A DNA stretch of 64,000 bases from a virus. Of this stretch, positions 21,530 to 42,715 are shown in pieces; position 1 is the first letter of the stretch; each line of letters starts with the position of its first letter. Both the position numbers and the translations under genes were made by a program. The stretch covers positions 32,001 to 96,000 of the IMG/VR virus record IMGVR_UViG_3300042878_001497; one strand, 5' to 3'. The notes under the pieces were generated by a model that worked only from the letters and a program-made list of their open reading frames with translations, made no database searches and was not told the origin of the DNA.

Positions 21530-21721
21530 ATGACATTAGGACAGGTTATAACAGTAGGAGATGATTGGTACCAGGTTATTAGAACAGTTAGAGAAGGTCG
21601 TGAATGGGATGTTGAACTTCTTAAACAGTACTGGTTTTGTTCGCATACCTTCCGTAAGGATGGTTTACTCTATTTTTGCCGAGCGATTGAAAAAGTTGAA
21701 TTTGAAGAAATAACAGAGTGA
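21530..21721 (+). CDS. Small hypothetical protein
   Basis: 63-aa ORF. Confidence 0.55.
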   Translation: MTLGQVITVGDDWYQVIRTVREGREWDVELLKQYWFCSHTFRKDGLLYFCRAIEKVEFEEITE

Positions 21722-22392
21722 TTGCAATACTAGGAGGAACAGGGTTGCTGGGAAAAGAGTTACAAAAGCTAGATTCTTCCTTAGTCTGTACGGGCCGGGA
21801 AATTGATATTACTAACTTTAAAGAAGTCTTCTACTACCTTAATAAAGTAAACCCGGATACTGTAGTCAACGCAGCTGCAATAACAAATTCCATAGAGGTT
21901 TCTGAGAATCCTATTCCTGCTATAGACGTTAATATTATAGGTGCTGCTAATATAGCTAAGTACTGTCAGCAATATGGTAAGAGATTGGTATATATTAGCA
22001 CAGACTACGTCTATCCCGGAACTGGTAACCATGTAGAGGATGATGCTCTATACCCAAATAACGAATATGCGTGGACTAAATTAGGGGGAGAATGTTCTTC
22101 TAGATTGGTGAAAGATCATTGTATAATTCGTACTAGTTTTGGAAGTAGAAAATTTCCTTATCCTGCTGCATATATAAATTTATTTACAAGTAAAGAATAC
22201 GTAGGTGTGCTTGCTCCTCAAATCTTAAAAATTATACAGAGTAAACTTAACGGAATTGTAAATGTAGGAGGTTACAGAAAAAGTTCATATATTTACGCAT
22301 CACAGTACAGCAAGGTTGACAAAATTCAATTAGAACATAGTAAAGATTTTAGCCTAAACACAGCAAAATATAATGAGAATTTCCCAGAGTGA
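21718..22392 (+). CDS. RmlD-like NDP-4-keto-sugar reductase (SDR)
   Basis: GGTGLLG, NAAA, ISTDYV, YAWTKLGGE. Confidence 0.85.
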   Translation: MIAILGGTGLLGKELQKLDSSLVCTGREIDITNFKEVFYYLNKVNPDTVVNAAAITNSIEVSENPIPAIDVNIIGAANIAKYCQQYGKRLVYISTDYVYPGTGNHVEDDALYPNNEYAWTKLGGECSSRLVKDHCIIRTSFGSRKFPYPAAYINLFTSKEYVGVLAPQILKIIQSKLNGIVNVGGYRKSSYIYASQYSKVDKIQLEHSKDFSLNTAKYNENFPE

Positions 22393-23605
22393 TTCATGCC
22401 CGATAACCGGAACTTCAGAAAGACTTAAGTACTTTTCTCTAGGCGAAATGCCGCTTGTTAATAATCTTGCCGATACTTTAGAAGAATCTTTAACCTGCAA
22501 AAAGATTCCTTTAGAACTAAACTATTTTGCAGAATCAAAACTTACTGCTTTAACTACTTTTGTAGACAGTCAGTCTTTGTTTAGTAACTACCTTTACAAG
22601 TCTGGAGTTAACACTCCCTACATTTCTCATAGTAGAAAAATGTTCAAAGATGTACGGAAGCTCTTACAACTTAAAGACCAGGACCTTATTGTAGACATTG
22701 GAGGTAATGATGGAACACTTCTTAAAACTTTTCGAGAAACTTCTAAAACATCCCTACAGTACCTAAATATTGATGGTTCTGAAAACATCACACAGTACTC
22801 TAAAGAACAGGGAATTAATACACTCTGCGAGTTTTTTAATGAAGATACCCCTACCCGAGTTAAAACTTTAGCCAAAGTTGTTGTATCCACAAATGTTTTT
22901 CAACATTTACAGGATACTAATTCTTTTGTTAGAGGGGTAAAAAAACTTCTACAATCAGACGGTGTATGGGTACTAGAATTTCCGTACTGGCTTCATGATA
23001 TGAAGACCAAGCAATTTGACCAGGTGTACCATGAGCATATGTACTACTACACAGTTACTCCGCTAGTAGCAATGATGCAAAAACACGAGTTGGAAGTTTT
23101 ACGAGTAGTTCCTCAAAAAATACATGGAGGTACTTTGCGTCTAATCATAGGGCATTTAGGAGGTAATCAACACCTAAAAGATAGTAGTGTAGAAGTTTAC
23201 CTAAAGAGAGAATCTAAACTTACACCCAAGTTCTACCAGCAGTGGGGAGCAAAAATTAAACAGCATTTGGTATCCTGTGAGAGTGAACTAAAGTACCTAA
23301 AAGGTAAAGGTAAGACCCTGGTAGGATTTGCTGCAAGTGCTAAGGGATGTGTCTTTCTAAACAGTGCCGGGATAGATTGTAAAGTACTTGATTTCATTAT
23401 CGATGATACTGATATAAAACAAGGCAAATTTATGCCGGGTACCGGACTAGAAATTAAAGGGAGAGGAGATGTAGATTTTGAACAAATTGATTACATTCTT
23501 ATACTCTCTCATAATTTTAGTGATCATATCATAAAAAGTCTTAAAGACGAAGGATATGAAGGTAAGTTTGTTGTGTGTTTACCTTCTTATAAAGTACTAT
23601 CATGA
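22373..23605 (+). CDS. NDP-hexose C-methyltransferase-like SAM methyltransferase
   Basis: DIGGNDG, FDQVYHEH, HGGTLR, AASAKG, KQGKFMPG. Confidence 0.88.
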   Translation: MRISQSDSCPITGTSERLKYFSLGEMPLVNNLADTLEESLTCKKIPLELNYFAESKLTALTTFVDSQSLFSNYLYKSGVNTPYISHSRKMFKDVRKLLQLKDQDLIVDIGGNDGTLLKTFRETSKTSLQYLNIDGSENITQYSKEQGINTLCEFFNEDTPTRVKTLAKVVVSTNVFQHLQDTNSFVRGVKKLLQSDGVWVLEFPYWLHDMKTKQFDQVYHEHMYYYTVTPLVAMMQKHELEVLRVVPQKIHGGTLRLIIGHLGGNQHLKDSSVEVYLKRESKLTPKFYQQWGAKIKQHLVSCESELKYLKGKGKTLVGFAASAKGCVFLNSAGIDCKVLDFIIDDTDIKQGKFMPGTGLEIKGRGDVDFEQIDYILILSHNFSDHIIKSLKDEGYEGKFVVCLPSYKVLS

Positions 23606-24378
23606 ATTCAATCCCAGTAATAGGAACAGCAATTGTAAACACGCCCTACTGGCTATACCGGCTGATTGCTAGTGTAGACTACCCGGTGGATAACTTTGTT
23701 ATCTTTAATAACAACGGTCGAGGAGAAATCACAGAAGAGCTTGACAATCTAGCTAAACTCTCTCATAAGTTTATTAAGAAAATTACAGTATGCCACTTAC
23801 CTGCTAATCTAGGTGTGCCTGGAGCATTTAACCTTATTATAAAAAGTTATATAAATTCTCCTAGCTGGTTGATAGTAAACTACGATGTAGCTTTTGGACC
23901 AGGCTTCTTAAAAGAGATGGCAGAGAAAGCTTCTGACCCGGAAGTAGGAATGGTACATGGTAAAGCAGGTGATTTTGATTTACCGAGCTGGGATGTATTC
24001 CTAATTAAAGACTGGGTAGTACAGCAGTACGGACTCTTTGACGAAAACTTAACCCCAGCTTACTGCGAAGATGCAGATTATTTTATGAGATTTGTGCATA
24101 GGCCTATAAAAGTAGTAAAGCAGCTAGACAGTATTTATTACCACGGCCCTGGTGTAGATTACTACGAACACGGAAGTCAAACCAAAAAAGGAGAACCTGC
24201 ACTAGCAGCAAAATTAGATCAGGTTAACGAAATAAATTTTGAATATATGTTTAAAAAGTGGGGTGAAGGTTGGAGATGGGTAAACCCACTACCTACACCT
24301 TTTGATATAGAAGGAACTCCTATCTCAACAACTACTTTTGATTTAGAATTTGTACGCAAAAAACATTTAGGCTTTTAA
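23602..24378 (+). CDS. Glycosyltransferase (GT2-like)
   Basis: NLGV, VNYDV, GLFDEN..PAYCEDADY. Confidence 0.8.
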   Translation: MNSIPVIGTAIVNTPYWLYRLIASVDYPVDNFVIFNNNGRGEITEELDNLAKLSHKFIKKITVCHLPANLGVPGAFNLIIKSYINSPSWLIVNYDVAFGPGFLKEMAEKASDPEVGMVHGKAGDFDLPSWDVFLIKDWVVQQYGLFDENLTPAYCEDADYFMRFVHRPIKVVKQLDSIYYHGPGVDYYEHGSQTKKGEPALAAKLDQVNEINFEYMFKKWGEGWRWVNPLPTPFDIEGTPISTTTFDLEFVRKKHLGF

Positions 24379-24379
24379 T

Positions 24380-25054
24380 ATGGACGAATATACTTTATAC
24401 GACGCTGAACCGGATTCACAGTGGGGAATCATTACAGGAAATTTAGCACAACACAACCCTCAGCAGAATCCACGATTCTGGGTGGTTGATAATTTTTATA
24501 AGAATCCCGACCAAATTAGGGAGTACGGTCTCTCGCAAGTATACTTTGAGGGGGAAGGAGCAGTGGGTTGGAGAACCCGTAAGCAGTTCCTTTTTGATGG
24601 ACTCAAAGAGCAGTTTGAAAAAATTACAAACAAGAAGATTTTAGATCATACCCCGGAAGGAACCGGCTGGTACGATGTAGGTATTAACGGACGCTTCCAG
24701 GCCTGTGAAGCAGGAACTAAGACGGTATTTCACTGCGATAGCCAGCAATGGGCTGCAGTTCTCTATCTAACTCCAGATGCTCCTCCCCAGAGCGGTACTA
24801 GCTTCTACCGACATAAGGAGACTAAAGTTAGACATAGTTCTGAGATTGCTTGGGGTACCGGGGAAGAACTGGCCACATTTAATCAAAAGACCTTTGTTGA
24901 TCCTACTCCTTTTGAGAGAGTAGATACAGTTGGTAACGTTTATAACAGGCTTGTTATTTTTGATGGAAAGCTTATTCACTCCGGTAATGATTACTTTGGA
25001 TGGGATATTCCTTCTAGCAGGTTCTTTCAAATTTTCTTTTTTGATGTTGAGTAA
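24380..25054 (+). CDS. 2OG-Fe(II) oxygenase-like protein (DUF6445-like)
   Basis: VVDNFY, HCD, AVLYLTP, GTSFY, NRLVIFDG..IH, R..QIFF. Confidence 0.8.
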   Translation: MDEYTLYDAEPDSQWGIITGNLAQHNPQQNPRFWVVDNFYKNPDQIREYGLSQVYFEGEGAVGWRTRKQFLFDGLKEQFEKITNKKILDHTPEGTGWYDVGINGRFQACEAGTKTVFHCDSQQWAAVLYLTPDAPPQSGTSFYRHKETKVRHSSEIAWGTGEELATFNQKTFVDPTPFERVDTVGNVYNRLVIFDGKLIHSGNDYFGWDIPSSRFFQIFFFDVE

Positions 25055-25409
25055 AGTTTTTTTAATTGACATCGACGGTACAATCTGCGATGATATCAAG
25101 AACGAAGAAAGCCACCTGTACCCGGCCGCTAACCCTTTGCCCAATGCTAGGGATATTATCAATAAATGGTACGATGAAGGTAGCGTAATTACTTTCTTTA
25201 CTGCCCGAGAATCCAAAGATAGAGCAGTAACAGAGGAGTGGCTTCACCGCCACGGTTTCAAGTACCACGGGCTTGTAATGGACAAGCCTAGAATTAAAGA
25301 TGGACAGGAGTATGTCTGGATTGATAACAGGAAAGTTAGAGCAATCACCTATCTTGGTACTTGGTCCGAACTAACAGAAGTAGATGCAAGAATACAAACC
25401 TTTCAGTAA
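25044..25409 (+). CDS. HAD-superfamily phosphatase
   Basis: DIDGT, FTAR, KP, WIDN; start at ATG 25044. Confidence 0.85.
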   Translation: MLSKVFLIDIDGTICDDIKNEESHLYPAANPLPNARDIINKWYDEGSVITFFTARESKDRAVTEEWLHRHGFKYHGLVMDKPRIKDGQEYVWIDNRKVRAITYLGTWSELTEVDARIQTFQ

Positions 25410-26406: not shown

Positions 26407-27000
26407 ATGAAAAAACTAATACTACTATTTTTATTTCCTATCTCGCTGTTTGGACAGCTCCGTGATAGTGTTTACTTTAATAACAACAATTTTATTGTTA
26501 ACTACTCCGAAACCCTAGAAGGACCTCGTTCGATACGTTATACAGTGCTTTGTCCGACCGGCACAGCTTCAAGATCGGGTATGGAGTTCTACAAGGAGAA
26601 AAAGATTCACACCTCAGATCACAAAGACTATGAAGCAAACGAATGGGATAAAGGGCACATGGCCCCCGCGGCATCTTTTAATTGCAATCGTGATATGCTA
26701 TACGGTACTTTCACCTATGTCAATTCTAGCCTTCAACAACAAAGTCTAAATAGAGGAGTTTGGAAAAAACTCGAAGTAAGAGAAAGAGAATTAGCTACAT
26801 CAGGACCAGTACGAGTTTTTATCCGAGTTGAATACCCTACTACTCCTGTTAGAGTTACAACCGGTGCTGCTATACCTTTAGGGTACTATAAGGAAATAAA
26901 AGTTGGAAATAAGAGAGAATGTTACTATTTTAAGAACGTAGCCCCGTCTACTTCGGACTTGGAGGCTTTTAAATGTACTTGCAAAAACGTTATCCAATGA
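26407..27000 (+). CDS. Secreted DNA/RNA non-specific endonuclease
   Basis: Signal peptide; DKGHMAPAA; LNRGVWKKLE. Confidence 0.88.
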   Translation: MKKLILLFLFPISLFGQLRDSVYFNNNNFIVNYSETLEGPRSIRYTVLCPTGTASRSGMEFYKEKKIHTSDHKDYEANEWDKGHMAPAASFNCNRDMLYGTFTYVNSSLQQQSLNRGVWKKLEVRERELATSGPVRVFIRVEYPTTPVRVTTGAAIPLGYYKEIKVGNKRECYYFKNVAPSTSDLEAFKCTCKNVIQ

Positions 27001-27905
27001 AAAAATTACTAATTCTACTAACCCTAGTATTAGGGTTTACCTCAAGTGCATCACACCTCCTAGGAGGCGGTATAGGAGTATTTCAAACCAGTAAAGATTC
27101 TACCTCTGTAGGAGTATGGCTGGTCTCGGATGCTCAAGGGTTTCCAATGCCAAACTCAATCAATGTTGAGAAGTGGGAGATGAACTCGGTAGGATGGTAC
27201 GTTCAAAACGGAGCTATCTCACTCTCTAAAACTACCTCTGCGACCTTCCAAGGACACATCCTTACCAACTATACTTCAGAGTACCTGGATCTAGATTCTA
27301 ATAAGTACCGGTTTATTTATAGGAACTGCTGCTGGGGCATGCTAAGTAATTCTACCAGTTCTATGAACTCAGAATTTATTATTTCAGCTGATTACTGGCA
27401 TATCGCACTTAACTCAACTCCGTACGTTAGACTGCCTTTTATTATTAACCAGCAGACAGGTACTCGCAATACAATGAAACCGATCTGGGGAACAAATGCA
27501 TTCTTAGTTAATCCTGATACCTGGGATAATACGTCCATTACGCAGACAGACCTGCATTCAGGTTATGCTAACGGAGTATTCGTACCTCAAATTCATACTG
27601 AGATTCCTATGTATGTAAGTAATGACAGCATTAGCTGGGTACCTGGTACTCTTGGCAGATACGCAACAGGGTTTGAAATTAAAGATATGCGAAATGGACA
27701 GGTCATTGGCATTCAACGAGCACAGTGGACTTTTCTGGTAGTTCCCTCTACTATAGGTATAGAAGAAAATATTAAAGATTCTCAGACACAGTACCTGGTA
27801 TATGATTGGTACGGCCGGATTGTAGGAGATAAGTCAGAAGGGTTGAAAGGACTTTACGTAGTAAGGTACAGTAACGGTGAAGTAGAAAAAGTACTGTGCA
27901 ACTAA
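26997..27905 (+). CDS. Secreted protein with degenerate T9SS-like C-terminus
   Basis: Signal peptide then SHLLGG; ends YDWYGR...GLYVVRYSNG..EKV. Confidence 0.7.
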   Translation: MKKLLILLTLVLGFTSSASHLLGGGIGVFQTSKDSTSVGVWLVSDAQGFPMPNSINVEKWEMNSVGWYVQNGAISLSKTTSATFQGHILTNYTSEYLDLDSNKYRFIYRNCCWGMLSNSTSSMNSEFIISADYWHIALNSTPYVRLPFIINQQTGTRNTMKPIWGTNAFLVNPDTWDNTSITQTDLHSGYANGVFVPQIHTEIPMYVSNDSISWVPGTLGRYATGFEIKDMRNGQVIGIQRAQWTFLVVPSTIGIEENIKDSQTQYLVYDWYGRIVGDKSEGLKGLYVVRYSNGEVEKVLCN

Positions 27906-28303
27906 TCAACACCCACCCGATCAAGAAATCAGACCTAGGCTTCCACGGAAATCTCTTCGGTGGAAAGCTTATGGCCTGGATCGATGCGGCAGCAGCCTCT
28001 TATGCAATGGAGGTGTGTCACAATCGCAGAATGGTTACCGTCTGCATTGATAAGTGTGTGTTTAAGAAGCCTGCAAAGGAAGGGTCTCTGCTAAAGATAT
28101 ACGGGGATACCCTACATATCGGCACTACTAGCGTAACGCTTTACCTGGAAGGAAGAAGCTTTAACGTCTACACCCACGGTGAGGATGTAGTGCTGAGTAC
28201 CAACATTACCTTTGTCCGCATTGACGAAGAAGGAAGTGCTATTCCAATTTCAGATACAGTAAGAGAAAATTTAAAAAAGTATTTAGATGCAAAGTCTATT
28301 TGA
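27896..28303 (+). CDS. Acyl-CoA thioesterase (hotdog fold, YciA-like)
   Basis: HGNLFGGKLMAWID, VTV, FKKP, TFV. Confidence 0.88.
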   Translation: MQLINTHPIKKSDLGFHGNLFGGKLMAWIDAAAASYAMEVCHNRRMVTVCIDKCVFKKPAKEGSLLKIYGDTLHIGTTSVTLYLEGRSFNVYTHGEDVVLSTNITFVRIDEEGSAIPISDTVRENLKKYLDAKSI

Positions 28304-28799
28304 TATTAAAGAGATCGAAATCCAGACTAAAATCCTTGCCAAGAAGATTTCAGCTGAACACCAAGGAGACAAAACTCCCGTTGTAATGGTAGGACTGTTG
28401 AACGGAGCATTTATGTTCTATGCAGACCTGGTACGCAATATGGGCATTGATGTGGAATGTGACTTCATGAGAGTTAAAAGCTACACAGCCCAGTTCAAGC
28501 AAGGAGATATTAAGATTATTAAAGATCTCGAGACTCCTATCAGAGGAAAGCACGTGTACCTGGTAGACGATATCTACGATACCGGCTCTACTATGAAAGC
28601 ATTAATTGAGTACCTAGAGGTAAAAAAGCCCGCCTCTATCTCAATTGTAACTCTACTCCGTAGAGAAACCTCTCCAATCCCGGATCAAGCCTTCTACAAG
28701 TACCATGCATTCACCATCAAGGATGAATGGGTAGTAGGATTTGGAATGGATGACGAAAAAGGTTATTCAAGAAATCTCAATGGAGTATTTGCTCTGTAA
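28287..28799 (+). CDS. hpt: Hypoxanthine/guanine phosphoribosyltransferase
   Basis: LNGAFMF, LVDDIYDTGST, WVVGFGMD. Confidence 0.9.
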   Translation: MQSLFDIKEIEIQTKILAKKISAEHQGDKTPVVMVGLLNGAFMFYADLVRNMGIDVECDFMRVKSYTAQFKQGDIKIIKDLETPIRGKHVYLVDDIYDTGSTMKALIEYLEVKKPASISIVTLLRRETSPIPDQAFYKYHAFTIKDEWVVGFGMDDEKGYSRNLNGVFAL

Positions 28800-28822
28800 G
28801 AGAAGTTTTCGTATATTAAACA

Positions 28823-28855
28823 AAGGTGTTCGAAGCACCACCTTAAAAAAACAAT
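28823..28855 (+). promoter_or_regulatory. preQ1 class I riboswitch-like aptamer (copy 2)
   Basis: AAGGTG-TTCGAAGCAC-CACCTT-AAAAAAA-CAAT, between promoter and folE ATG. Confidence 0.72.
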
Positions 28856-28858
28856 TAT

Positions 28859-29569
28859 ATGGCAGATAAAAAACGTTATGATGTAGAGTTAGCTCAAGCC
28901 GGCTTTGCCAACGGTATTTCCTCTCAACTGGCAGAGAAATTTAACATGCATAAGATGAACGATATCTCTCTTACCGAACAAGAGAAATACGTTATTATTG
29001 AAAGAGCAGCTAAAGCATTCGGTGAGTTTCTCGATGCATTAGGAGTTGATTGGAAGAACGATCCTAACTCTTCAGATACTCCACGTCGTGTAGCAAAAGC
29101 TTATGTAAACGATTTATGGTACGGCCGATTCAATCCTATGCCTGCTATCACAGCCTTCCCTTCAGATGGTTACGACGGCATTGTATTTGAAGGAAATATT
29201 CCTTTGACTTCGATGTGTTCACATCACCATCAGACCATTACCGGTCGAGTTCATATCGGCTACATCCCCTCTAAGGACGGAAAGGTAATCGGGCTTTCTA
29301 AACTGAATCGTATTGTAGAGCATTTCGGCCGTCGAGGAGCTATTCAGGAGCAGCTTACTGTTGCTATCCATAACGCAGTTGATACTGTGTGTGAAGGTAA
29401 CCTTGGAGTAGCTGTAATGATTGAGGCAGGTCATAACTGTGTATCATGCCGAGGCACCAAGCACGCCGGTGCATCAATGAAAACATCAAAGCTTTCAGGC
29501 AGCTTCCTTGAAGAAGATTCAGCCCGTGCAGAGTTTTATGAATTTGTAAAAGGATACGCATGCAAGTAA
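28859..29569 (+). CDS. folE: GTP cyclohydrolase I
   Basis: DTPRRVAK, SMCSHH, GLSKLNR, IQEQLT, HNCVSCRG. Confidence 0.95.
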   Translation: MADKKRYDVELAQAGFANGISSQLAEKFNMHKMNDISLTEQEKYVIIERAAKAFGEFLDALGVDWKNDPNSSDTPRRVAKAYVNDLWYGRFNPMPAITAFPSDGYDGIVFEGNIPLTSMCSHHHQTITGRVHIGYIPSKDGKVIGLSKLNRIVEHFGRRGAIQEQLTVAIHNAVDTVCEGNLGVAVMIEAGHNCVSCRGTKHAGASMKTSKLSGSFLEEDSARAEFYEFVKGYACK

Positions 29570-30054
29570 AATTTGTTGACGAAGTAGAACTATTTAATTC
29601 TACCTTCGGTAAGCCGAATAACTACACCCCTATCATTCCTAATGATAAGAAGCTTACAGACTTTGTTGTTAACTTTATTAAAGAAGAAACCGATGAACTC
29701 GCCGAAGCAATCGAAAATAAAGACATCGTGGAAGTGTTGGATGCTATTTGTGATCTCCTGTATGTTGCCGTGGGCAATGCTACTATGGTCTTTGGCCTCA
29801 AAGATAAGTTAGAGGCAGCTTACGCTGAGGTACAGGCATCGAATATGTCTAAGAGCTGTGAGACCTACGATGAAGCAATGGAAACTATCGATGCTCATTA
29901 TAAAGACCATGGTACTTGTTACACTCGCCAGGTGGGAGATCGATGGGTTGTATACCGTGAATCGGACGATAAGGTAATGAAGTCAATCAATTACTTTGCT
30001 CCTAACCTAGAGCAATTTTTTACCGAAGAAGAAATTAAAAACTCCAAGCAATGA
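29560..30054 (+). CDS. MazG-like all-alpha NTP pyrophosphohydrolase
   Basis: EETDEL...EVLDAICDLLYV...EVQASNMSK...KVMK. Confidence 0.85.
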   Translation: MQVKFVDEVELFNSTFGKPNNYTPIIPNDKKLTDFVVNFIKEETDELAEAIENKDIVEVLDAICDLLYVAVGNATMVFGLKDKLEAAYAEVQASNMSKSCETYDEAMETIDAHYKDHGTCYTRQVGDRWVVYRESDDKVMKSINYFAPNLEQFFTEEEIKNSKQ

Positions 30055-30239
30055 CACCCCAGCAGCTAATCGATCAAAATAAAACCTTCTCAGAAGAGTT
30101 GCAGCAATGGATTGTACCTCTTATCTTTGTAGACGAAGCTCTTCAGATGAAAACTGCCCAGGATGTAGATGCTAGTATGAAGAGACTTGAAGAAGTAATG
30201 CAAGACCTCAACACAGTAATTAGCAAGATAAATGATTAA
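30051..30239 (+). CDS. Small hypothetical protein
   Basis: 62-aa ORF overlapping both neighbours. Confidence 0.6.
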   Translation: MTPQQLIDQNKTFSEELQQWIVPLIFVDEALQMKTAQDVDASMKRLEEVMQDLNTVISKIND

Positions 30240-31062
30240 AATTGCCCATGAGTCTCCAAAAGCTATTTTTAAAGAGATTCAAGAACTTACCGACTACGAC
30301 TACGCTCTAGTTCACCTCTTTGAAGAGGATCCTGAATACCTTCAGAAGTTTAAGGATGCTCTGGCAGCCGGCCGAGAAGTTATTCTAGATAATTCTATTT
30401 TTGAGTTAGAAGAAGCTTTTGATGCTAATCGTTTTGCTTACTGGATTAACGAACTTAAGCCAACCTGGTACATCGTTCCTGACTCGTTAGAGAATGTAGA
30501 GAAGACTATGTCTAATATGGCAGAATGGAATATACACTATGCTGATAAAGTTCCTGCAGAATGTAAGAAGATTGGAGTAGTACAGGGAAAGACTTACTCT
30601 CAGATAGTCAATTGCTACGAATACATGGTCAGTATAGCCGAAGTAGATATGGTGGCAATCTCTTTCGATTACAGTTATTTCCAAGAGAAATTCCCTCATC
30701 CTAACAAATACGTTAGCTGGATGCTAGGCCGGGTACAGTTGCTAGGTCGAATGCTTAAAGACGGAGTTATTAATCCTGACGTACCTCACCACCTTTTAGG
30801 TTGCGGACTACCTCAAGAGTTTCAATTCTACCGAGAGGCTAAGTACGATTGGATTTACTCCCTAGATACTTCCAATCCTGTGGTTCACGGACTGAAGGAG
30901 ATTTACTACAAAGACCAAGGACTGTGGAATAAAGAATCTCAGAAGCTCTTTACCATGATTAACTCCGAAGTTACGGAGAAGCAAATGGAGGTCATTCGTC
31001 ATAATGTTTCACGCTTTAGATGGTTTGCAAATGGAAACGCGCCCGTGGGTAACATTCTTTAG
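30232..31062 (+). CDS. TGT-fold 7-deazaguanine insertion enzyme (DpdA3-like)
   Basis: ILDNSIFE, IVPD, GVVQG, HLLG, SLDTS match TGT/DpdA barrel motifs; lies inside the que cluster. Confidence 0.75.
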   Translation: MIKIAHESPKAIFKEIQELTDYDYALVHLFEEDPEYLQKFKDALAAGREVILDNSIFELEEAFDANRFAYWINELKPTWYIVPDSLENVEKTMSNMAEWNIHYADKVPAECKKIGVVQGKTYSQIVNCYEYMVSIAEVDMVAISFDYSYFQEKFPHPNKYVSWMLGRVQLLGRMLKDGVINPDVPHHLLGCGLPQEFQFYREAKYDWIYSLDTSNPVVHGLKEIYYKDQGLWNKESQKLFTMINSEVTEKQMEVIRHNVSRFRWFANGNAPVGNIL

Positions 31063-31567
31063 TCAGACAGGTTCTGAGATCGTTCAGATCTCGGAAGCTC
31101 TAGGGCGGTGGCCGGATATGATTATTAGTAATCGCCGACCGACTGATGCTAGAATTATTAGTCCTGCTCTTCCTAAAGATCGTCTGTACTTTACCTCCAA
31201 TAAGCCAGAAGCTTACGAATACTTACATTATCTCCGTCAGGCAAAAGATCCGATTGTAACTCTACACGGATGGCTTAGAGTACTTCCTGAAGAGGTTTGT
31301 GACAGTTACGAAGTTTACAACGGTCATCCAGGTTTGATTACCCGCTACCCTGAACTGAAGGGTAAAGATCCTCAGATGCGAGCTTTTGAAGGAGATTATA
31401 ATACTGGTGGTTGCGTGATTCATAAAGTAACTCCCGGAGTAGACGAAGGAGAGATTCTAATGGAAAAAGAAATTAGCATTAGACTGTTGGATCTTGACGG
31501 ACTATTCCGTACATTACATAAGACTTCAGTCAATATGTGGATTGAATTCCTTAAAGAACGTCTATGA
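31031..31567 (+). CDS. PurN-like formyltransferase (DpdN-like, preQ1 formylation)
   Basis: SQTGS, LHGWLRVL, NGHPGL..YP..KG, GCVIHKV...VDEGEI. Confidence 0.8.
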   Translation: METRPWVTFFSQTGSEIVQISEALGRWPDMIISNRRPTDARIISPALPKDRLYFTSNKPEAYEYLHYLRQAKDPIVTLHGWLRVLPEEVCDSYEVYNGHPGLITRYPELKGKDPQMRAFEGDYNTGGCVIHKVTPGVDEGEILMEKEISIRLLDLDGLFRTLHKTSVNMWIEFLKERL

Positions 31568-32082
31568 TTAAAAGAGTTGCATTAGTAGGAGCTAGTAGTA
31601 CCGGTAAGACGACTGTGTATGAGCTTCTTAAGAATCAGTTCCCGAAGTGGGAGTTTGTAAATGAGAGTACTCGTTCGGTAGCTCGTTACGGCTTTCCTAT
31701 CAATGAACTAGGTACTACAGAAACTCAGTTAGCTATCTCAAGCTTTCATTTAGAGGCATTGCTTAAACCTTATAATCTTATTCTGGATCGTTGTTACTTA
31801 GATCTAATAGTTTACTCTCGTCATATGCCGGGACTATCTCAATCAGGCTTAGATTTTATCGAAGCTACCTGGCAGCGAGTTCAAGACGAATATACTCATT
31901 ATATCTACTTTCCTATCGAATTCGATGCAGTCGATGACGGAGAAAGAAGTGTTGATGAAGATTGGAGAAAAATTATCGACGAAGAGTTCAAGTATCAATT
32001 AGACCTAACAGACAGGCATTACCTGACTGTAACCGGTTCACCTATGCAAAGAGTAAATCAAATCCTTAAATACATTAAATAA
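31564..32082 (+). CDS. P-loop nucleotide kinase (NadR/AAA_28-like)
   Basis: GASSTGKTT, E..R, ILDRC.LD, DDGER. Confidence 0.8.
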   Translation: MIKRVALVGASSTGKTTVYELLKNQFPKWEFVNESTRSVARYGFPINELGTTETQLAISSFHLEALLKPYNLILDRCYLDLIVYSRHMPGLSQSGLDFIEATWQRVQDEYTHYIYFPIEFDAVDDGERSVDEDWRKIIDEEFKYQLDLTDRHYLTVTGSPMQRVNQILKYIK

Positions 32083-32996
32083 TGGACGCTAACAAGAATC
32101 AAAGCGCAGTTGTAGAGATTGCAAGTAAACACCTCGGACAGGTAGGTGGTGCAGGCTACTCAGACAAATACGATCCCTCACTGCTAGTAGCAGTACCTCG
32201 TTACCTCAACCGAGAGGCTTACGGCATCAAAGAAGACAGCCTACCTTTCGTAGGAGTTGATTCATGGAATGCCTACGAAGTATCAGCAATCACAGAGAAG
32301 GGACGTCCGGTAGCAGGCATGCTTAAGATTGTATGCCCGGCCGATTCACCATTCCACGTTGAGTCAAAGTCAATCAAGCTTTACCTCAACTCATTCAATA
32401 TGACTCCTTTTGGCAAGACAGCCAAAGAGTGTATCAAGTTTATCGAAACTCAAGTAGCTAAGGACCTTACCGAGCTTCTGCAAGGGGATGTTATTTGTAC
32501 CTTCTTCGGTAACGATTACGGAGTTGAGTTTCAATTCGATGGCTACCAAGACCTAGCCGGTCTAGTAAACCTAGATGAAGTAGAATTTACTTCATTCCAC
32601 TCAGATGCTTCTCAATTGAAGGTCTGGGAGGTAAAAGAAGAAAACGTTGTTAAAGAGATTCATTCAGACCTTCTACGTTCTAACTGCCGGGTAACTAATC
32701 AGCCGGACTGGGGTGATGTTTACATCCGTATGGAAGGTAAGAACGTAGCTGATGAAGCATCACTAGCACAGTACATTGTATCTCACCGCCAGGTCTCTCA
32801 CTTCCACGAAGAGATCTGTGAGATGATATTTACTCATCTCATGCAAGCTTATCAGCCTGAAAAACTGATGGTTGCATGTCTTTATACGCGACGTGGAGGA
32901 ATTGATATTAATCCTATTCGAGCCACTCATGCCGAATTGATCCCGGGATGGTTTAAGGATTCGAATAAACGGATGAAAAAAACTTTACGTCAATAA
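32082..32996 (+). CDS. queF: NADPH-dependent 7-cyano-7-deazaguanine reductase (bimodular)
   Basis: WNAYEVS, VESKSIKLYLNSF, LRSNCRVTNQPDWG, FHEEICE, YTRRGGIDINP. Confidence 0.95.
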   Translation: MDANKNQSAVVEIASKHLGQVGGAGYSDKYDPSLLVAVPRYLNREAYGIKEDSLPFVGVDSWNAYEVSAITEKGRPVAGMLKIVCPADSPFHVESKSIKLYLNSFNMTPFGKTAKECIKFIETQVAKDLTELLQGDVICTFFGNDYGVEFQFDGYQDLAGLVNLDEVEFTSFHSDASQLKVWEVKEENVVKEIHSDLLRSNCRVTNQPDWGDVYIRMEGKNVADEASLAQYIVSHRQVSHFHEEICEMIFTHLMQAYQPEKLMVACLYTRRGGIDINPIRATHAELIPGWFKDSNKRMKKTLRQ

Positions 32997-32999
32997 GTT

Positions 33000-33020
33000 G
33001 GAGCCTACGGGCTCCTTTCT
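33000..33020 (+). terminator. Hairpin/terminator within promoter spacer
   Basis: GGAGCC-TACG-GGCTCC-TTTCT. Confidence 0.6.
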
Positions 33021-33033
33021 TATTTTTAGATAT

Positions 33034-35367
33034 ATGGCTATAGAAAAAAAGTACTACCTGGTTACAGACAAAGAGACTGTTAACCTACTTATTCAACACA
33101 TCCAAGAATCAAAGGTTATCGCTTATGATACCGAGACTGACTCCCTCAACATGAGGAAAGGTCAGATTATAGGATTCTCCGTATCGGGGGATATCGGGAT
33201 GGGGTTCTACCTCCCTACTATGGCCTGGAACCACCAGACCGGTACCCTAGATGAACTTAATATTGAAGGGGTACCTTGCCACTCTATAGCAAAAAAAATC
33301 TTACCTATGCTTATCGGCAAGAGGCTTGTGATGCACAACGCATCGTTTGACTGCCGGTTTACTAAAAACTTCTACGGGGTGGACCTCCTAGAGAGTTTAT
33401 GGGTAGATACTGCCTTACTAGTCCACACCGTCCAAGAGGAGGGTGCAGGGATGGGGGTATTCGGTCTTAAGTCCCTAGCAATATCAGTACAAAATGAAAT
33501 CGGACTCGACGTCGAAAAAGCTGCTAACGAAGAGCAGGTCCTTCTCAAGGAATCTATTAAAGCCAACGGAGGTTCAGCTACTAAGGAAAACTACGAGATT
33601 TATAAAGCCGACATGGGGCTCCTGGGTAAGTATGCTGCTGCTGATACCGACCTTACTCTTCGTCTGTGCAGTCATTTTATGGACGTCCTTCAACGAGAGG
33701 GTCTTGAGAAATTCTTCTTCGAAGATGAAGTAATGCCCCTTTACAAGGAGGTTACTATCCCGATGGAGGAGATGGGTGTTGATTTGAATATAGATTTGCT
33801 GCTTGAGACCAGGGATGAGATTTTAAAAGACTTAGCTGAGAATAAGCAGATCGTTCTTAAATCTTTGATAGGTACTAAGGCCGGCCAGGAATGGGTGGTA
33901 GACACTGCTCTAAATGAGTTCCCGCCCTCTAACAAAGGTACATGGGCACAGACACTAGCCGAGCGATACTCCCTCTCTCTGCCTAAATCTGATAAGACTG
34001 GTAAGTTCTCTATTACTAAAAAGACTTTAGAGGAGCTGGAAGATTCTCCTGCTAAGGAGTACCTACTGACCGGGGACCTAAACCTCTTAGATACTATGGA
34101 GGCTATGAAGATCTCGATGTCTTTATGGAAGCAAAAGAACGACGGTGACTATGTTAACATCCAGTCTAAAAAACACCTAGGAGAGATAGCATTCAAGTAT
34201 ATGAATATCCGGGCTAGATCTCAGACCGCTAAAGGTCAGGATCAGTTCGATATGGATATGCTAGAGGACTTATCTAAGACTCATTCCTGGGCTGAGAACC
34301 TCCGGGTTTATAATAAGCTTCTTAAGATTAAGTCCACTTACATCGATCGGTTTGTTGATAATGCCGAAGATGGGAAGTACTTCTTCTACTTCAAGCAGCA
34401 CGGTACGGTTTCTGGCCGATACGGCTCCGATGCCCAGCAGCTACCCAAACCCAAGGAAGAGGGTGAGGACGTTCCAATTATCGTTAAGTACAATAACGCC
34501 GTCAGGGCTTTCTTGATAGCGGGAGAAGGAAGGAAGATTATCGATGCTGACTATGAGTCACTGGAACCTCACTGCTTTGCTTCAGTATCCGGGGATAGAG
34601 GTCTGCAAGATATCTTTAATAACGGGTGGGACTTTTACTCTACAGTCGCTATTAAGGCCGAAAAGCTTGAACAGGATACAGTCAACTACCCTAATGGAGT
34701 TAGTCCGGATAAAAAATCTCCGGTCTACCTTAAGAAGATCGATCCCGTTAAAAGGAATAAAGCCAAGGCTTACTCGCTAGGAATAGCTTACGGAATGGAG
34801 GCTTACGCGTTAGGAAAATCTTTGGACATAGATCAGAAAGCAGCCCAGATCCTAGTTGACGGCTACTTGGATGGGTTCCCCGAACTTAAAGCCTGGAGGA
34901 TCAACTCCCGTCAGCACGTCAAAGAGCACGGCTCTATCAAAAATAAAGTAGGCCGGATAAGGCACCTGCCTAAAGTCCAGAGACTCTACCAGAAGTACGG
35001 AGATCAGATCATGGACTGGAGATATAGGAATGAGCTCGCTAATACCTACGGCAAGGAACAGGTCATGAGTATGTATAGGGATTATCGCAACGGACTTAAT
35101 AACTGCTTGAACTATCAGCTGCAATCACTAGCAGCGGCTGTTGTTAACCGGGCTGCTATCCAGATCAATCGTAAGTTAAAAGAGATGGGGATTGACGGCC
35201 GGGTTCAGGCTCAGGTCCATGACCAGCTTATAATTAACGTCCCTGAACATCAAGCCGAGTTAGTAGCACCTATCGTAAAAGAGATCATGGAAAACACCAC
35301 CCAGCTAGAAGGAGTAACTCTAAAAGCACCTCCTGAGATTACAAACAATTGGAGAGATGGGCACTAA
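33034..35367 (+). CDS. polA: DNA polymerase family A with 3'-5' exonuclease
   Basis: DTET, HNASFD, YAAAD exonuclease motifs; SGRYGS, DYESLE, RNKAKAYSLGIAYG, VHDQL polymerase motifs. Confidence 0.93.
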   Translation: MAIEKKYYLVTDKETVNLLIQHIQESKVIAYDTETDSLNMRKGQIIGFSVSGDIGMGFYLPTMAWNHQTGTLDELNIEGVPCHSIAKKILPMLIGKRLVMHNASFDCRFTKNFYGVDLLESLWVDTALLVHTVQEEGAGMGVFGLKSLAISVQNEIGLDVEKAANEEQVLLKESIKANGGSATKENYEIYKADMGLLGKYAAADTDLTLRLCSHFMDVLQREGLEKFFFEDEVMPLYKEVTIPMEEMGVDLNIDLLLETRDEILKDLAENKQIVLKSLIGTKAGQEWVVDTALNEFPPSNKGTWAQTLAERYSLSLPKSDKTGKFSITKKTLEELEDSPAKEYLLTGDLNLLDTMEAMKISMSLWKQKNDGDYVNIQSKKHLGEIAFKYMNIRARSQTAKGQDQFDMDMLEDLSKTHSWAENLRVYNKLLKIKSTYIDRFVDNAEDGKYFFYFKQHGTVSGRYGSDAQQLPKPKEEGEDVPIIVKYNNAVRAFLIAGEGRKIIDADYESLEPHCFASVSGDRGLQDIFNNGWDFYSTVAIKAEKLEQDTVNYPNGVSPDKKSPVYLKKIDPVKRNKAKAYSLGIAYGMEAYALGKSLDIDQKAAQILVDGYLDGFPELKAWRINSRQHVKEHGSIKNKVGRIRHLPKVQRLYQKYGDQIMDWRYRNELANTYGKEQVMSMYRDYRNGLNNCLNYQLQSLAAAVVNRAAIQINRKLKEMGIDGRVQAQVHDQLIINVPEHQAELVAPIVKEIMENTTQLEGVTLKAPPEITNNWRDGH

Positions 35368-35475: not shown

Positions 35476-35916
35476 ATGACACACATCAAGTACACTCCGT
35501 GGACTGCAGACTATACGTCATCCACATTCGACATCCTATTCAAGGATTTCTTTAACACGAACTCAACGTTCGTATCACCGATCGACCAAAAGATCGGACA
35601 TCCAGTAGACATTTATGAAACCGAAAAAGGGTTATTCTTCGAGATCGCCGCAACGGGGCTATCGAAGCAAGATATCAAAATCTCAATTGAAGGTGAAATC
35701 CTTCGAATTATTCACGATAAAGTGGAAGAACAGGTCGATAAGACTAAAGTTCGTTATTACAACAAAGGACTTAGTAGACGATCATTCAATCTAGGTTATA
35801 AAATTGCTCGTAGGTTTGACCTCAGCACAATTGACGCCCAGATGAAAGACGGATTGCTTAAGATCTTCTTACCTCACACCGAGGAACATAAACCTCAAGA
35901 AGTAAAGATTAAGTAA
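35476..35916 (+). CDS. Small heat-shock protein (Hsp20)
   Basis: PVDIYET, GLSKQDI, RSF, AQMKDGLLKI. Confidence 0.93.
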   Translation: MTHIKYTPWTADYTSSTFDILFKDFFNTNSTFVSPIDQKIGHPVDIYETEKGLFFEIAATGLSKQDIKISIEGEILRIIHDKVEEQVDKTKVRYYNKGLSRRSFNLGYKIARRFDLSTIDAQMKDGLLKIFLPHTEEHKPQEVKIK

Positions 35917-35974
35917 AGTTACATTTGGTCCCCTGCGATTTTTTTCGTATCTTTAAGTATTAATCAAAACAGTT

Positions 35975-36256
35975 ATGGCAAGAGGTAAAAAAGTTGGCCA
36001 CGTAAAGCCGCAAGTCACTATTAAAGATGACTCTATCACTCCCTACTATATTAGTATGGACGAGAATCAATTCACCGTTCAGGTGGAAGGTTCCACTCTC
36101 CCGCTAGGCTACTACAGTAGGTTAGATGGAGCTGTAAAACGTATTGCAAAATACAAAGTACTGGAGAATCTTAATCAATCTACAGTTGACCTGACGGACT
36201 TTTTAAAGGCTTACGATAAAGTATTAACGCAAATTAATGACCGAATTCCGGTATGA
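35975..36256 (+). CDS. Hypothetical protein
   Basis: 93-aa ORF after promoter 35925-35955. Confidence 0.65.
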   Translation: MARGKKVGHVKPQVTIKDDSITPYYISMDENQFTVQVEGSTLPLGYYSRLDGAVKRIAKYKVLENLNQSTVDLTDFLKAYDKVLTQINDRIPV

Positions 36257-36552
36257 AGAAACTAATTCCACTTAACGACCGTATTGTGGTAAAGCCGATC
36301 GAAGAGGTCGAGCAGACTTACGGTAACATCATTATTGCCGATATGGGCAGAGAGCGCCCAGAGATGGGCGAAGTAATCGCAGTAGGACCTGGACGTATGT
36401 CAGAATACGGCAAGTTTGTTCCAGTGAACGTAAACGTTGGCGATATTGTACTCCTTCCTAAAATTGGTACCATCCGAGTTGAATTCGATGGTGAAGAGTA
36501 TTATATTGGTCAAGCAAGAGAAATCCTTTGTAAAGTAATCGAAAATGAGTAA
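36253..36552 (+). CDS. groES: Co-chaperonin GroES
   Basis: PLNDRIVV, GEVIAVGPG, VGDIVL. Confidence 0.95.
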   Translation: MKKLIPLNDRIVVKPIEEVEQTYGNIIIADMGRERPEMGEVIAVGPGRMSEYGKFVPVNVNVGDIVLLPKIGTIRVEFDGEEYYIGQAREILCKVIENE

Positions 36553-38179
36553 GAAGATTGAATTTTCAAATCAAGCCCGCGAACAGCTCCTTGCTGGAGT
36601 TGAGAAGCTTGCTAACGCAGTAGCTTCCACCCTCGGTCCTAACGGCCGGAATGTTATTATCGAACAGCAGATGGGTAATCCGGTCTCAACCAAGGATGGT
36701 GTTACGGTAGCCAAAGCAATCGAGCTAGAAGACACTATCGAGAATATGGGTGCCCAGCTTGTGAAGCAGGCCTCAATCAAGACTGCAGACGGAGCCGGTG
36801 ATGGTACTACTACCTCAACTCTCCTTGCATACGAAATTTACAAAGAAGGTTTGAAGCATCTGGATAAGCACAACGCAGTAGACATTAGCCGAGGTGTGGC
36901 TAAGGCTACCAAAGAGGTTGTAGCTTACCTAGAGCAACAAGCCCGAGAAATTACCGACGAAAATCAACTTCGTCAGGTAGCAACTATCTCAGCTAATAAC
37001 GACCCTGAGGTGGGAGAGCTAATCGCTGCAGCTATGGACAAGGTGGGGCGTGACGGCGTAGTGACTATCGAAGAATCTCGCACAGGCGAGACCTACCTAG
37101 AGACGGTAGAGGGTATGCAGTTTAATCGTGGATATAAATCAATTTACTTTGTAACTGATAATAACACGATGACGGCTGCATTGAGCAACCCACTGGTTTT
37201 AATTGCAGATAAAAAGATCACTGCCGCCAAAGAGCTTCTTCCAATCCTGGAAGCATGTTCAGCTCAGAACAAAGCTCTGTTAATCATTGCCGATGATATC
37301 GATGGCGAGGCTCTCTCCACCCTGGTCGTAAATAAGATGCGAGGAATCTTGCAAGTAGTAGCAGTTAAGGCTCCAGAATTTGGAGATCGTAAAAAAGCTA
37401 TGCTAGAAGATATCGCTACGCTGACCGGTGGTCAAGTTGTATCAACTGAGAAAGGAATGCGACTGGATAAGTTCAATCCTGATTGGTTAGGTTCAGCCCG
37501 CAAAGTTACCATCGGTAAAGAAGAAACCACGATTGTGGATGGCAAAGGAGCTTCTGAAGCTATTGAAACCCGGGTAGATGAGATCAAAGCTCTGATCGAT
37601 AATGCTAAATCTCCTTTCGAAAAAGAGACTCTCCAGGATCGATTAGGACGATTGATTGGCGGTGTAGCGATTGTTTACGTCGGAGGTCAATCAGAACTTG
37701 AGATGAAAGAGAAGAAAGATCGAGTAGAGGATGCATTGCATGCTACTAAGGCAGCCCTTCAAGAAGGTATTCTGCCAGGTGGTGGTACCGCTCTTTTAAA
37801 TGCAGCTGAATACCTGCATGCTAACAAGACACTAGTACCGTTTGCAAATACTTCTGCAGAACTCGGCTATACAATCCTTCTACAGGCTATCAACAAACCT
37901 TTCTTTAAGATTTTATCCAATGCCGGATACGAACAAGGATACTCAGAAGATATTATGAATGAGGTCCTTAATTCAGATAATTTCTGGCAAGGATTTAATC
38001 TACGTACCGAAGAGTATGTTGATATGTTTGAGGAAGGTATTATCGACCCTGCCAAGGTAACACGCCTGGCGCTAGAAAATGCAGCTTCGATTGCAGGTAC
38101 TATGCTAACAACCGAATGTGTTGTAAGCAACCTAAAAGAGAAGAGCAGCGATCCTATGGATTTTAATTCAATGATGTAA
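36545..38179 (+). CDS. groEL: Chaperonin GroEL
   Basis: TLGPNGRNV, TKDGVTVAK, AGDGTTT, EGMQF, KAPEFGDR, IIDPAKV. Confidence 0.98.
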   Translation: MSKKIEFSNQAREQLLAGVEKLANAVASTLGPNGRNVIIEQQMGNPVSTKDGVTVAKAIELEDTIENMGAQLVKQASIKTADGAGDGTTTSTLLAYEIYKEGLKHLDKHNAVDISRGVAKATKEVVAYLEQQAREITDENQLRQVATISANNDPEVGELIAAAMDKVGRDGVVTIEESRTGETYLETVEGMQFNRGYKSIYFVTDNNTMTAALSNPLVLIADKKITAAKELLPILEACSAQNKALLIIADDIDGEALSTLVVNKMRGILQVVAVKAPEFGDRKKAMLEDIATLTGGQVVSTEKGMRLDKFNPDWLGSARKVTIGKEETTIVDGKGASEAIETRVDEIKALIDNAKSPFEKETLQDRLGRLIGGVAIVYVGGQSELEMKEKKDRVEDALHATKAALQEGILPGGGTALLNAAEYLHANKTLVPFANTSAELGYTILLQAINKPFFKILSNAGYEQGYSEDIMNEVLNSDNFWQGFNLRTEEYVDMFEEGIIDPAKVTRLALENAASIAGTMLTTECVVSNLKEKSSDPMDFNSMM

Positions 38180-41057: not shown

Positions 41058-41142
41058 GCACCAGTGATGAAATGGTAGACATGAGGGACTTAAAATCCCT
41101 TGGGCAGGAATGCCCGTGCCGGTTCGAGTCCGGCCTGGTGTA
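41058..41142 (+). tRNA. tRNA-Leu(TAA)
   Basis: GCACCAG/CTGGTGT acceptor; AGGGA-CTTAAAA-TCCCT; long variable arm; GGTTCGAGTCC. Confidence 0.93.
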
Positions 41143-41229
41143 CAGAAGAAGGGTTGGAGGTAAGAAAAAAAATTCGTATCTTTAATCTATAGAACAAAGA
41201 GGTTCTTTGACTTGTTGGCGGTATAGAAT

Positions 41230-41312
41230 GCCGAGGTGGTGGAATGGTAGACACGCTGGTCTTAGGAACCAGTGCTTTACGCGTGCGGGTTCGAGTCCCG
41301 CCCTCGGTACCA
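41230..41312 (+). tRNA. tRNA-Leu(TAG)
   Basis: GCCGAGG/CCTCGGT; CTGGT-CTTAGGA-ACCAG; encoded CCA. Confidence 0.95.
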
Positions 41313-41318
41313 TAATAT

Positions 41319-41392
41319 GGTCCGGTAGCTCAGCTGGATAGAGCATCGCACTTCTAATGCGACGGTCTCAGGTTCGAATCCTGATCGGATCA
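41319..41392 (+). tRNA. tRNA-Arg(TCT)
   Basis: GGTCCGG/TCGGATC; TCGCA-CTTCTAA-TGCGA. Confidence 0.93.
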
Positions 41393-41486
41393 CTACGCAG
41401 TCAAGTGTTCGAGGTTTCTTTGTTCCTAGGGAAAAACAAAGTGGAGCTACAGTGGCAGGTTGCGGTTGTCCTACAACAACCGAGTT

Positions 41487-41559
41487 AGGGGAGTAGCGCA
41501 GGTGGTAGCGCAGCTGGTTTGGGACCAGCGGGTCGCAGGTTCGAGTCCTGTCTTCCCTA
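41487..41559 (+). tRNA. tRNA-Pro(TGG)
   Basis: AGGGGAG/CTTCCCT; GCTGG-TTTGGGA-CCAGC. Confidence 0.9.
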
Positions 41560-41581
41560 CTAACTTTTAAATATCTAAACT

Positions 41582-41773: not shown

Positions 41774-41839
41774 GTTCGTATATTTATCCTATAACGATCC
41801 CAGGCGTGTACACTAATTGTTTAATTTAAATTTTCTAAT

Positions 41840-42004: not shown

Positions 42005-42115
42005 TACTGAGTCTAGCCAAAAAATCCTGTTGCACTCGAACAGGTTGACTTCGGGGAAAAGATTAAAAGGGGGAGTACGTGAACCGATAGCGTCTTAGAA
42101 TAAACCTCCCTGTAA

Positions 42116-42713: not shown

Positions 42714-42715
42714 TC

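Follow-up and report, generated by a model that had tools for sequence, protein, structure and literature searches.

Phages that carry a 7-deazaguanine in place of guanine raise the question of whether the base is exchanged in the finished DNA or on the nucleotide pool, before replication takes place. The question was addressed with a stretch of 64,000 nucleotides (the window), which comprises bases 32001-96000 of a 173,415-bp IMG/VR virus record that is rated 100% complete and stems from an uncultured phage. The window encodes DpdA3, a protein with the fold of tRNA-guanine transglycosylases (TGTs), the PurN-like formyltransferase DpdN, a P-loop kinase of the AAA_28 family, a MazG-like pyrophosphohydrolase, and a family A DNA polymerase, together with enzymes for the synthesis of the base preQ1. 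The comparative analysis suggested, without proving it, that guanine is swapped on the nucleotide pool prior to replication, and the probability of this reading was put at roughly one in two. It gains comparative support because a nucleoside-kinase-like enzyme and several non-homologous deoxynucleoside triphosphate (dNTP) pyrophosphatases accompany DpdA3, while they are absent from the loci of DpdA1. A nucleotide-pool route had already been proposed in a first-pass annotation of the window. This core of the proposal was strengthened by the linkage of the kinase and the pyrophosphatases to DpdA3, while base attachment by the hypoxanthine-guanine phosphoribosyltransferase (HGPRT), a dedicated PolA, and the completeness of the pathway were not supported or overstated.

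The mechanism matters more than the gene set, which is a further member of the known system for formyl-dPreQ1 (fdPreQ1) formation with DpdA3 and DpdN that was described for the Flavobacterium phage immuto. The genes concerned are the following:

13031-13906, + strand: QueC, preQ0 synthase (PF06508, E 6e-37)
19926-20390, + strand: QueD, 6-carboxytetrahydropterin (CPH4) synthase of the PTPS family (PF01242, E 8.5e-15)
20393-21175, + strand: QueE, radical-SAM 7-carboxy-7-deazaguanine (CDG) synthase (PF04055, E 1e-6), at a position orthologous to that of immuto QueE
28287-28799, + strand: HGPRT (PF00156, E 1e-23; TIGR01203, 150.7 bits)
28859-29569, + strand: FolE, GTP cyclohydrolase I, the first step towards 7-deazaguanines (PF01227, E 9e-44)
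29560-30054, + strand: MazG/PRA-PH-like all-alpha NTP pyrophosphohydrolase (PF01503, E 1e-12; PF03819, E 0.003)
30051-30239, + strand: small open reading frame (ORF) of 62 amino acids (aa), no family match, kept in the closest relatives
30232-31062, + strand: DpdA3-type TGT-fold transglycosylase of 276 aa, no Pfam match, assigned by homology and by structural modelling (AF2/Foldseek)
31031-31567, + strand: DpdN, PurN-like formyltransferase (PF00551, E 7e-13), alternative ORF start at 31004
31564-32082, + strand: AAA_28 P-loop kinase (PF13521, E 3e-15)
32082-32996, + strand: QueF, preQ0 to preQ1 reductase of the two-domain type (PF14819, E 9e-33; PF14489, E 2e-20)
33034-35367, + strand: PolA, family A DNA polymerase with a 3'-5' exonuclease domain (PF00476, E 4e-59; PF01612, E 4e-13)

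The contiguous run from the HGPRT to the PolA gene, with the genes for QueC, QueD and QueE upstream, had been described in the first-pass annotation, and every member of it was recovered at its position on the + strand. The genes from folE to polA overlap or abut, and the cluster therefore has the appearance of one operon. Because the same order is found in immuto and in dozens of IMG/VR contigs, the arrangement is conserved and not a product of chance. Two start sites were adjusted. The homologues of DpdN begin at an internal Met (31031), and the true start of PolA is probably the ATG at 33034 and not the start of the longest ORF at 32998, judging from the alignment to the immuto PolA. QueF scored 260 bits with TIGR03138, which is below the equivalog cut-off of 293, and both Pfam QueF domains passed.

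The identity of the system follows from the comparison with immuto. The DNA of this phage was reported to contain no dG and 345,000 fdPreQ1 per 10^6 nucleotides, and in the same study DpdA3, which was linked to complete replacement, and DpdN received their names (PMC10516641). The window and immuto share the order phosphoribosyltransferase (PRTase), FolE, hydrolase (MazG-like), small ORF, DpdA, formyltransferase, "thymidylate kinase", QueF, PolA and GroES/GroEL. The window DpdA3 is 70.5% identical to the immuto protein annotated as "DNA guanine transglycosylase DpdA" (tblastn), and the values for DpdN (YP_010114479), the MazG-like protein (gp208) and PolA (counted from M13) are 58%, 54% and 72%, respectively. 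The protein identities, the gene order and the base content of immuto DNA thus bore out the tie to the formyl-dPreQ1 of a Flavobacterium phage that had been drawn earlier, and, to judge from the sequence, the cluster is an fdPreQ1 guanine-replacement system as in immuto. Nevertheless, the two phages are separate. No megablast match was found between the window and immuto, and a megablast comparison of the region with phage records yielded no nucleotide-level match at all, so that relatives are seen only at the protein level. In addition, immuto has a truncated PRTase of 131 aa, compared with the full-length HGPRT of the window. In the study of immuto the kinase was not discussed, and MazG was mentioned only in passing, for phage phiST (PMC10516641).

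The gene environment of DpdA3 was then compared across phages. The close sample comprised 80 IMG/VR loci with DpdA3 identities of 50-88%. The kinase followed DpdA3 in all 61 loci that had at least 1.5 kb of downstream sequence, usually at a distance of about 0.5 kb, and DpdN was present in 59 of the 61. A MazG/PRA-PH gene of the window type was found in 43 of the 73 loci with enough upstream sequence. In a second clade, mapped onto locus L057, a PRA-PH-like gene lies within the cluster, upstream of QueD. Independent lineages carry more weight than these counts. The locus of the Campylobacter phage CP220 contains an HD + AAA_33 protein, DpdA3 and an AAA_28 kinase (gp057), which is a homologue of the window kinase (30% identity, E 1e-22). 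In the Cellulophaga phage phiST the order is FolE, MazG, a hypothetical protein, an AAA_18/33 P-loop protein, DpdA3, and the alpha subunit of Pol III. Further combinations were found in metagenomic lineages. One of them has NUDIX, DpdA3 and AAA_28, and another has QueD, QueE, FolE, MazG and a dGTP_diPhyd_N domain (PF18909, 63.4 bits) directly upstream of DpdA3, with PolA downstream. In other lineages a DCD/dUTPase-like gene and a T4-type deoxynucleoside monophosphate kinase (DNMK) lie near DpdA3, or AAA_28 lies directly upstream of it. PF18909 was next to DpdA3 only in loci L087 and L165. Taken together, four non-homologous types of dNTP pyrophosphatase occur beside DpdA3, namely MazG, NUDIX, the MazZ-like PF18909, and DCD/dUTPase. 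As a control, DpdA1 loci of the 9g type were analysed. In six loci with 69 ORFs and in the 9g record, Que genes and polymerases were present, and neither an NTP pyrophosphatase nor a nucleoside or nucleotide kinase was detected near DpdA.

DpdA3 itself has the features of a base-exchanging enzyme. The window protein is 37-40% identical to the proteins of the CP220 group and 27% to those of the phiST group (tblastn). In metagenomes from aquatic habitats the family reaches a very large size (1425 clusters at 50% identity). Single-protein scans of IMG/VR with P0254 and P0220 found nothing. An alignment of 45 DpdA3 sequences was the basis of an AlphaFold2 (AF2) model with a pLDDT of 96.3, and the best 50 Foldseek matches in the PDB were all TGTs (E 4e-9, TM score 0.65). 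When the DpdA3 profile was compared with the PDB, the sole near-significant match was DpdA of Salmonella (7ui4). D53, D84 and D212 are invariant in the 45 sequences and were aligned to D95, D130 and D256 of DpdA, an enzyme for which residues acting as general acid, in base binding and as nucleophile Asp have been described (PMC10164549). The DpdA3 motif HLLG...S-x-D-T-S-x-P aligns with HLLG...SIDSTTP of DpdA, and after correction for a 20-residue tag offset its Asp corresponds to the nucleophile D256 and its second Leu to L236. The equivalence of D53-N-S-x-F57 with D95/F99 and that of P83-D84 with D130 were derived from motif spacing and not from a structural superposition. Because D53/F57, D84 and D212 are conserved, the base-exchange active site of DpdA3 is regarded as intact. 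The Zn site CxCxxC...H was not found, as no Cys is invariant in the 45 sequences, and the beta8/alpha8 insertion (Ins8) has about 35 residues, compared with 128 in bacterial DpdA (bDpdA). The isoelectric point (pI) and the net charge were considered as discriminators and were given up as uninformative, because the DpdA3 and DpdA1 families share a median pI of about 5.6.

The kinase was analysed with a profile built from an alignment of 34 sequences. The matches in the PDB were the NadR ribosylnicotinamide kinase (E 6e-6) and deoxynucleoside kinases (E 7e-5). The AF2 model (pLDDT 90.8) led to a similar result, as the best Foldseek match was the ribosylnicotinamide kinase of NadR (TM score 0.78), followed by human dGK, dCK, other deoxynucleoside kinases and thymidylate kinases. 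Profile and model thus point to a small-molecule nucleoside or nucleotide kinase with nucleoside kinases as the nearest folds. In a search of the 173-kb genome this was the only AAA_28 gene, and Gmk, Tmk, Ndk and AAA_33 were not found. To call the pathway "complete", as had been done, was therefore an overstatement, because the genome encodes one kinase only. A fusion of AAA_28 with FolE2, a type IB GTP cyclohydrolase, was found (P0275, L192:2947-4455) next to a protein that matches DpdA3 with a hhalign probability of 99.9%. Fusions of DpdA3 with a kinase were not found: no kinase domain was seen in P0259, P0261 or P0269, and both the comparison of the window kinase with longer proteins and a profile search were negative. 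The score of a predicted DpdA3-kinase complex was 0.01, which weighs neither way. In another protein AAA_28 is joined to a C-terminal domain of 270 aa without known family (P0273, L191:3499-4860, between DpdN and QueF).

In DpdN, the residues N106, H108 and D147 are invariant and were aligned to the catalytic motif NxHPS...D of PurN. The likewise invariant N-terminal loop FFSQTGSE resembles the PurN loop LISGNGSN, which binds the 5'-phosphate of glycinamide ribonucleotide, and this resemblance was counted in favour of a nucleotide-pool route. Natural DpdA3::DpdN fusions exist (P0169 and P0227). The MazG-like protein matched phrog_671, "nucleotide pyrophosphohydrolase", with an E-value of 6.5e-30.

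From these components a route on the nucleotide pool can be drawn up. PreQ1 would be made as the free base, which is established chemistry for these enzyme families. The MazG-like enzyme would cut dGTP to dGMP, and would thereby both remove dGTP and supply the acceptor. In the key step, DpdA3 would act on deoxyguanosine or dGMP, and not on DNA, and would replace the guanine by preQ1 or formyl-preQ1. DpdN would formylate the aminomethyl group with 10-formyl-tetrahydrofolate, with the base, the nucleotide or the DNA as the possible substrate. The AAA_28 kinase would phosphorylate the modified nucleoside to the monophosphate, or the monophosphate to the diphosphate. Host kinases would finish the triphosphate, and PolA would incorporate it, while the HGPRT would return the freed guanine to GMP and then GTP, refeeding FolE. 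The idea of a pre-replicative exchange is not new. In 2019 a route through modified dGTP was put forward for CP220 (PMC6884629), and it was set aside in 2023. The free 7-amido-7-deazaguanine (ADG) nucleoside, which was reported from cells infected with CP220, speaks for such a route (PMC10516641). In its specific form the proposal states that DpdA3 is not a DNA transglycosylase but a guanine:7-deazaguanine exchanger for deoxyguanosine or dGMP, which, aided by a dGTP pyrophosphatase and a dedicated kinase, makes modified dGTP for the polymerase; the odds for this form were judged to be slightly short of even.

Several points weigh against a pool route. To our knowledge, every characterised TGT or DpdA enzyme acts on a polynucleotide, and none is known for a nucleoside or mononucleotide. 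Phage replication modules often contain NTP pyrophosphatases and kinases in any case. Because the loci of the close sample are closely related, the 61 of 61 occurrences of the kinase do not represent 61 independent events. The MazG-like protein of the window gave no Pfam match to PF18909, the domain of MazZ-type dATP/dGTP diphosphohydrolases, and its specificity for dGTP, with dGMP as the product, was inferred. A distant sample of 30 non-redundant loci with flanks of ±3 kb was also analysed. AAA_28 was adjacent to DpdA3 in 12 of the 30, and in about 10 of the 30 an ORF with a DUF3310 domain stood between DpdN and QueF in place of the kinase (e.g. L171:4264-4533). In four loci there was no kinase, MazG lay upstream and PolA lay downstream, and one of these loci contained PF18909. 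In three complete DpdA3 genomes of 42-44.5 kb, neither AAA_28 nor DNMK was present. The distant loci and the three genomes therefore indicate that a phage kinase is frequent but dispensable, which resembles the Z-genome phages, in which host kinases suffice. It had also been considered that the short Ins8 and the missing Zn site might prevent DpdA3 from binding DNA. This argument was dropped, because the DNA-acting DpdA1 of 9g also has no CxCxxC and exceeds DpdA3 in length by only about 40 aa. Finally, the authors who characterised these modifications read all of them as post-replicative (PMC10516641). As a side observation, DUF3310 also follows DpdA3 in L092:6788-7051 and is fused to it in P0245, and it thus is a recurrent partner.

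These authors also proposed a model in which replication proceeds with dGTP, and DpdA3 then exchanges every guanine of the DNA for preQ1, while DpdN formylates dPreQ1 in the DNA or preQ1 beforehand. The MazG-like enzyme, the kinase and the HGPRT would then belong to general or housekeeping metabolism (PMC10516641). This model, which was judged less likely than the pool route but kept a substantial weight, can build on the homology of DpdA3 to TGT and DpdA with its catalytic Asp triad, and on the fact that all tested relatives (TGT, bDpdA, and phage DpdA1/2) act on nucleic acid. It is also in accord with the lack of the kinase in many distant loci and in the three small genomes, and with the similarly compact DpdA1 of 9g without a Zn site. 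However, it leaves unexplained why a kinase and four unrelated types of pyrophosphatase, including a dATP/dGTP diphosphohydrolase domain, are found beside DpdA3 and not beside DpdA1. Hydrolysis of dGTP would be counterproductive if dG had to enter the DNA first. Furthermore, a 100% exchange in every sequence context would be unprecedented, as DpdA enzymes reach 0.1-30%, and complete replacement is confined to DpdA3 phages (PMC10516641). In the same study, an activity of DpdA3 could not be demonstrated in DNA modification tests in E. coli. In the literature after 2023, no paper that tests DpdA3 was found.

An exchange on the pool could also be achieved without DpdA3. It is known from toyocamycin biosynthesis that a PRTase forms the 7-deazapurine nucleotide from preQ0. 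In a ToyH-like route, the HGPRT would join preQ1 or preQ0 to phosphoribosyl pyrophosphate, the kinase would produce the diphosphate, the ribonucleotide reductase of the phage would reduce it, and the dNTP would be incorporated, while DpdA3 would be redundant or serve tRNA. The HGPRT gene lies directly upstream of folE, and NrdA and NrdB are encoded by the phage, both of which would fit. Nevertheless, this route is very improbable. The HGPRT scores as a canonical equivalog (its 150.7 bits compare with a cut-off of 150), its nearest relatives in the PDB are HGPRTs (E 2e-29), and no PRTase is present in the DpdA3 neighbourhoods of CP220 or phiST. Moreover, it was found in only 6 of the 80 related loci, it is truncated in immuto, and a PRTase is absent from two of five large related genomes (present in 3/5, compared with 4/5 for PRA-PH), whereas DpdA3 is universal. 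The earlier suggestion that the HPRT attaches the base thus found no support. Because of its scarcity in the related loci and large genomes, the HGPRT is probably an accessory canonical enzyme, which in the exchange by DpdA3 would salvage the guanine that is set free.

The polymerase has been called "dedicated" as well. Its motif A is DYESLEPH, motif B is ...AKAYSLGIAYG with a Leu at the position of Klenow F762, and motif C is QVHDQL, with a Gln in place of Klenow E883 of the HDE motif. This motif C is kept in 33 of 36 related PolA genes. Family A polymerases are known to accept 7-substituted 7-deaza-dGTPs. Analogues of 7-deaza-dGTP have been found to be good substrates of ordinary polymerases (cited in PMC10516641 and PMC6884629). 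As ordinary polymerases accept such triphosphates, and as the polymerase of a DpdA3 phage can be PolA, Pol III alpha (phiST) or a T4-like enzyme (CP220), nothing beyond adjacency ties PolA to the modified base, and the attribute could not be upheld.

Additional elements were noted in the surroundings of the cluster. A preQ1-I riboswitch-like leader (RF00522) was found at 28819-28860, in the 59-nt gap between the HGPRT gene and folE; it reached 21.8 bits (E 0.008 in a search of 101 nt) and thus stayed below the gathering score of 39. A second preQ1-I-like stretch lies ahead of the queD operon at 19620-19647 and scored 10.2 bits, also below the Rfam gathering score, and in 8 related loci RF00522 gave no match at the gathering score. 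A gene for Vut_1 (PF02592; L111:1631-2299 and L171:1935-2531), presumably a member of the YhhQ family of preQ0/preQ1 transporters, is present in some DpdA3 phages and suggests an uptake of free 7-deazaguanine bases. Nucleases recur beside DpdA3, i.e., an NS-type endonuclease at 26407-27000 of the window, an SNase homologue directly upstream of DpdA3 in L171:2586-3005, and a 145-aa family between FolE and DpdA3 in the second clade (L057:7567-8004). The latter had been considered as a MazG candidate, and this was rejected, as it had no Pfam match and its pattern D..D-x-K..E suggests a PD-(D/E)xK nuclease. These nucleases may degrade unmodified DNA or supply deoxynucleoside monophosphates (dNMPs).

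Other genes of the window were noted as well. Between QueE and ThyA, at 21718-25409, lies a sugar-modification cassette with an RmlD-like reductase, a C-methyltransferase (PF08484), a GT2 glycosyltransferase, DUF6445 and a HAD phosphatase. The examined stretch of immuto lacks this cassette, whose target could be a surface glycan or DNA/nucleotides. A 4HBT thioesterase of the hotdog fold (27896-28303) lies directly upstream of the HGPRT gene and is kept in immuto (gp221), and Hsp20, a GroES-sized ORF and GroEL follow polA at 35476-38179, as in immuto. The window further contains a protein of 1477 aa with many collagen triple-helix repeats (14255-18688; PF01391, E 5e-55), which is probably a fibre, and a cluster of eight tRNA genes at 41058-42789.

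If guanine were indeed swapped on the nucleotide pool, the complete replacement of G in phages of the immuto, CP220 and phiST types would be pre-replicative, as a purine counterpart of the T4 and Z-genome strategies. DpdA3 would be the first TGT-fold enzyme that works on mononucleotides, which would be a new activity for this fold, and a new enzymatic route to non-canonical dNTPs would explain why the replacement reaches 100%. The comparative pattern gives this view a concrete form, which can be tested with four recombinant proteins and the culturable pair of immuto and Flavobacterium sp. LMO8.

Besides immuto, the window can be compared with CP220, which contains 2'-deoxy-7-amido-7-deazaguanosine (dADG), and phiST, which contains 2'-deoxy-7-deazaguanosine (dDG). 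Both have a DpdA3 homologue and a complete replacement of G, both have a P-loop kinase beside DpdA3 (homologous to that of the window in CP220, a non-homologous AAA_18/33 protein in phiST), and both have a phosphohydrolase nearby (an HD domain in CP220, MazG in phiST). They differ from the window in the lack of QueF and DpdN, in the final base, and in their polymerases. In the bDpdA/DpdB system and in DpdA1 of 9g, which both stand for a transglycosylation of DNA after replication, the TIM-barrel TGT fold and the general acid, base-binding and nucleophile Asp residues are conserved as in DpdA3. However, bDpdA requires the ATPase DpdB and carries its Zn site in the long Ins8, in contrast to the short insertion without a Zn site in DpdA3, and the DpdA1 loci contain no kinases or NTP pyrophosphatases and lead to a partial replacement only. 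In T4, hydroxymethyl-dC (hmC) is introduced with the help of the dCTPase gp56, gp42, and the dNMP kinase gp1, and thus by exclusion of the canonical dNTP and by a kinase devoted to the modified dNMP. A T4-type DNMK near DpdA3 in one lineage is reminiscent of this pathway, in which, in contrast, a pyrimidine is modified by a thymidylate-synthase-like enzyme and no base is exchanged. The Z-genome system (PurZ, MazZ, DatZ, DpoZ) shares its logic with the route proposed for DpdA3. A pyrophosphatase removes the canonical dNTP and at the same time supplies the dNMP, from which a dedicated enzyme forms the new dNMP. The triphosphate is then completed by host kinases, and polA is often a neighbouring gene. 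The PF18909 domain beside DpdA3 in some lineages is a further likeness, which the MazG-like protein of the window does not share. The chemistry and the enzymes are unrelated, as the new nucleotide of the Z-genome is formed in a PurA-like synthesis, whereas a base exchange by a TGT-fold enzyme would be used in the DpdA3 phages.

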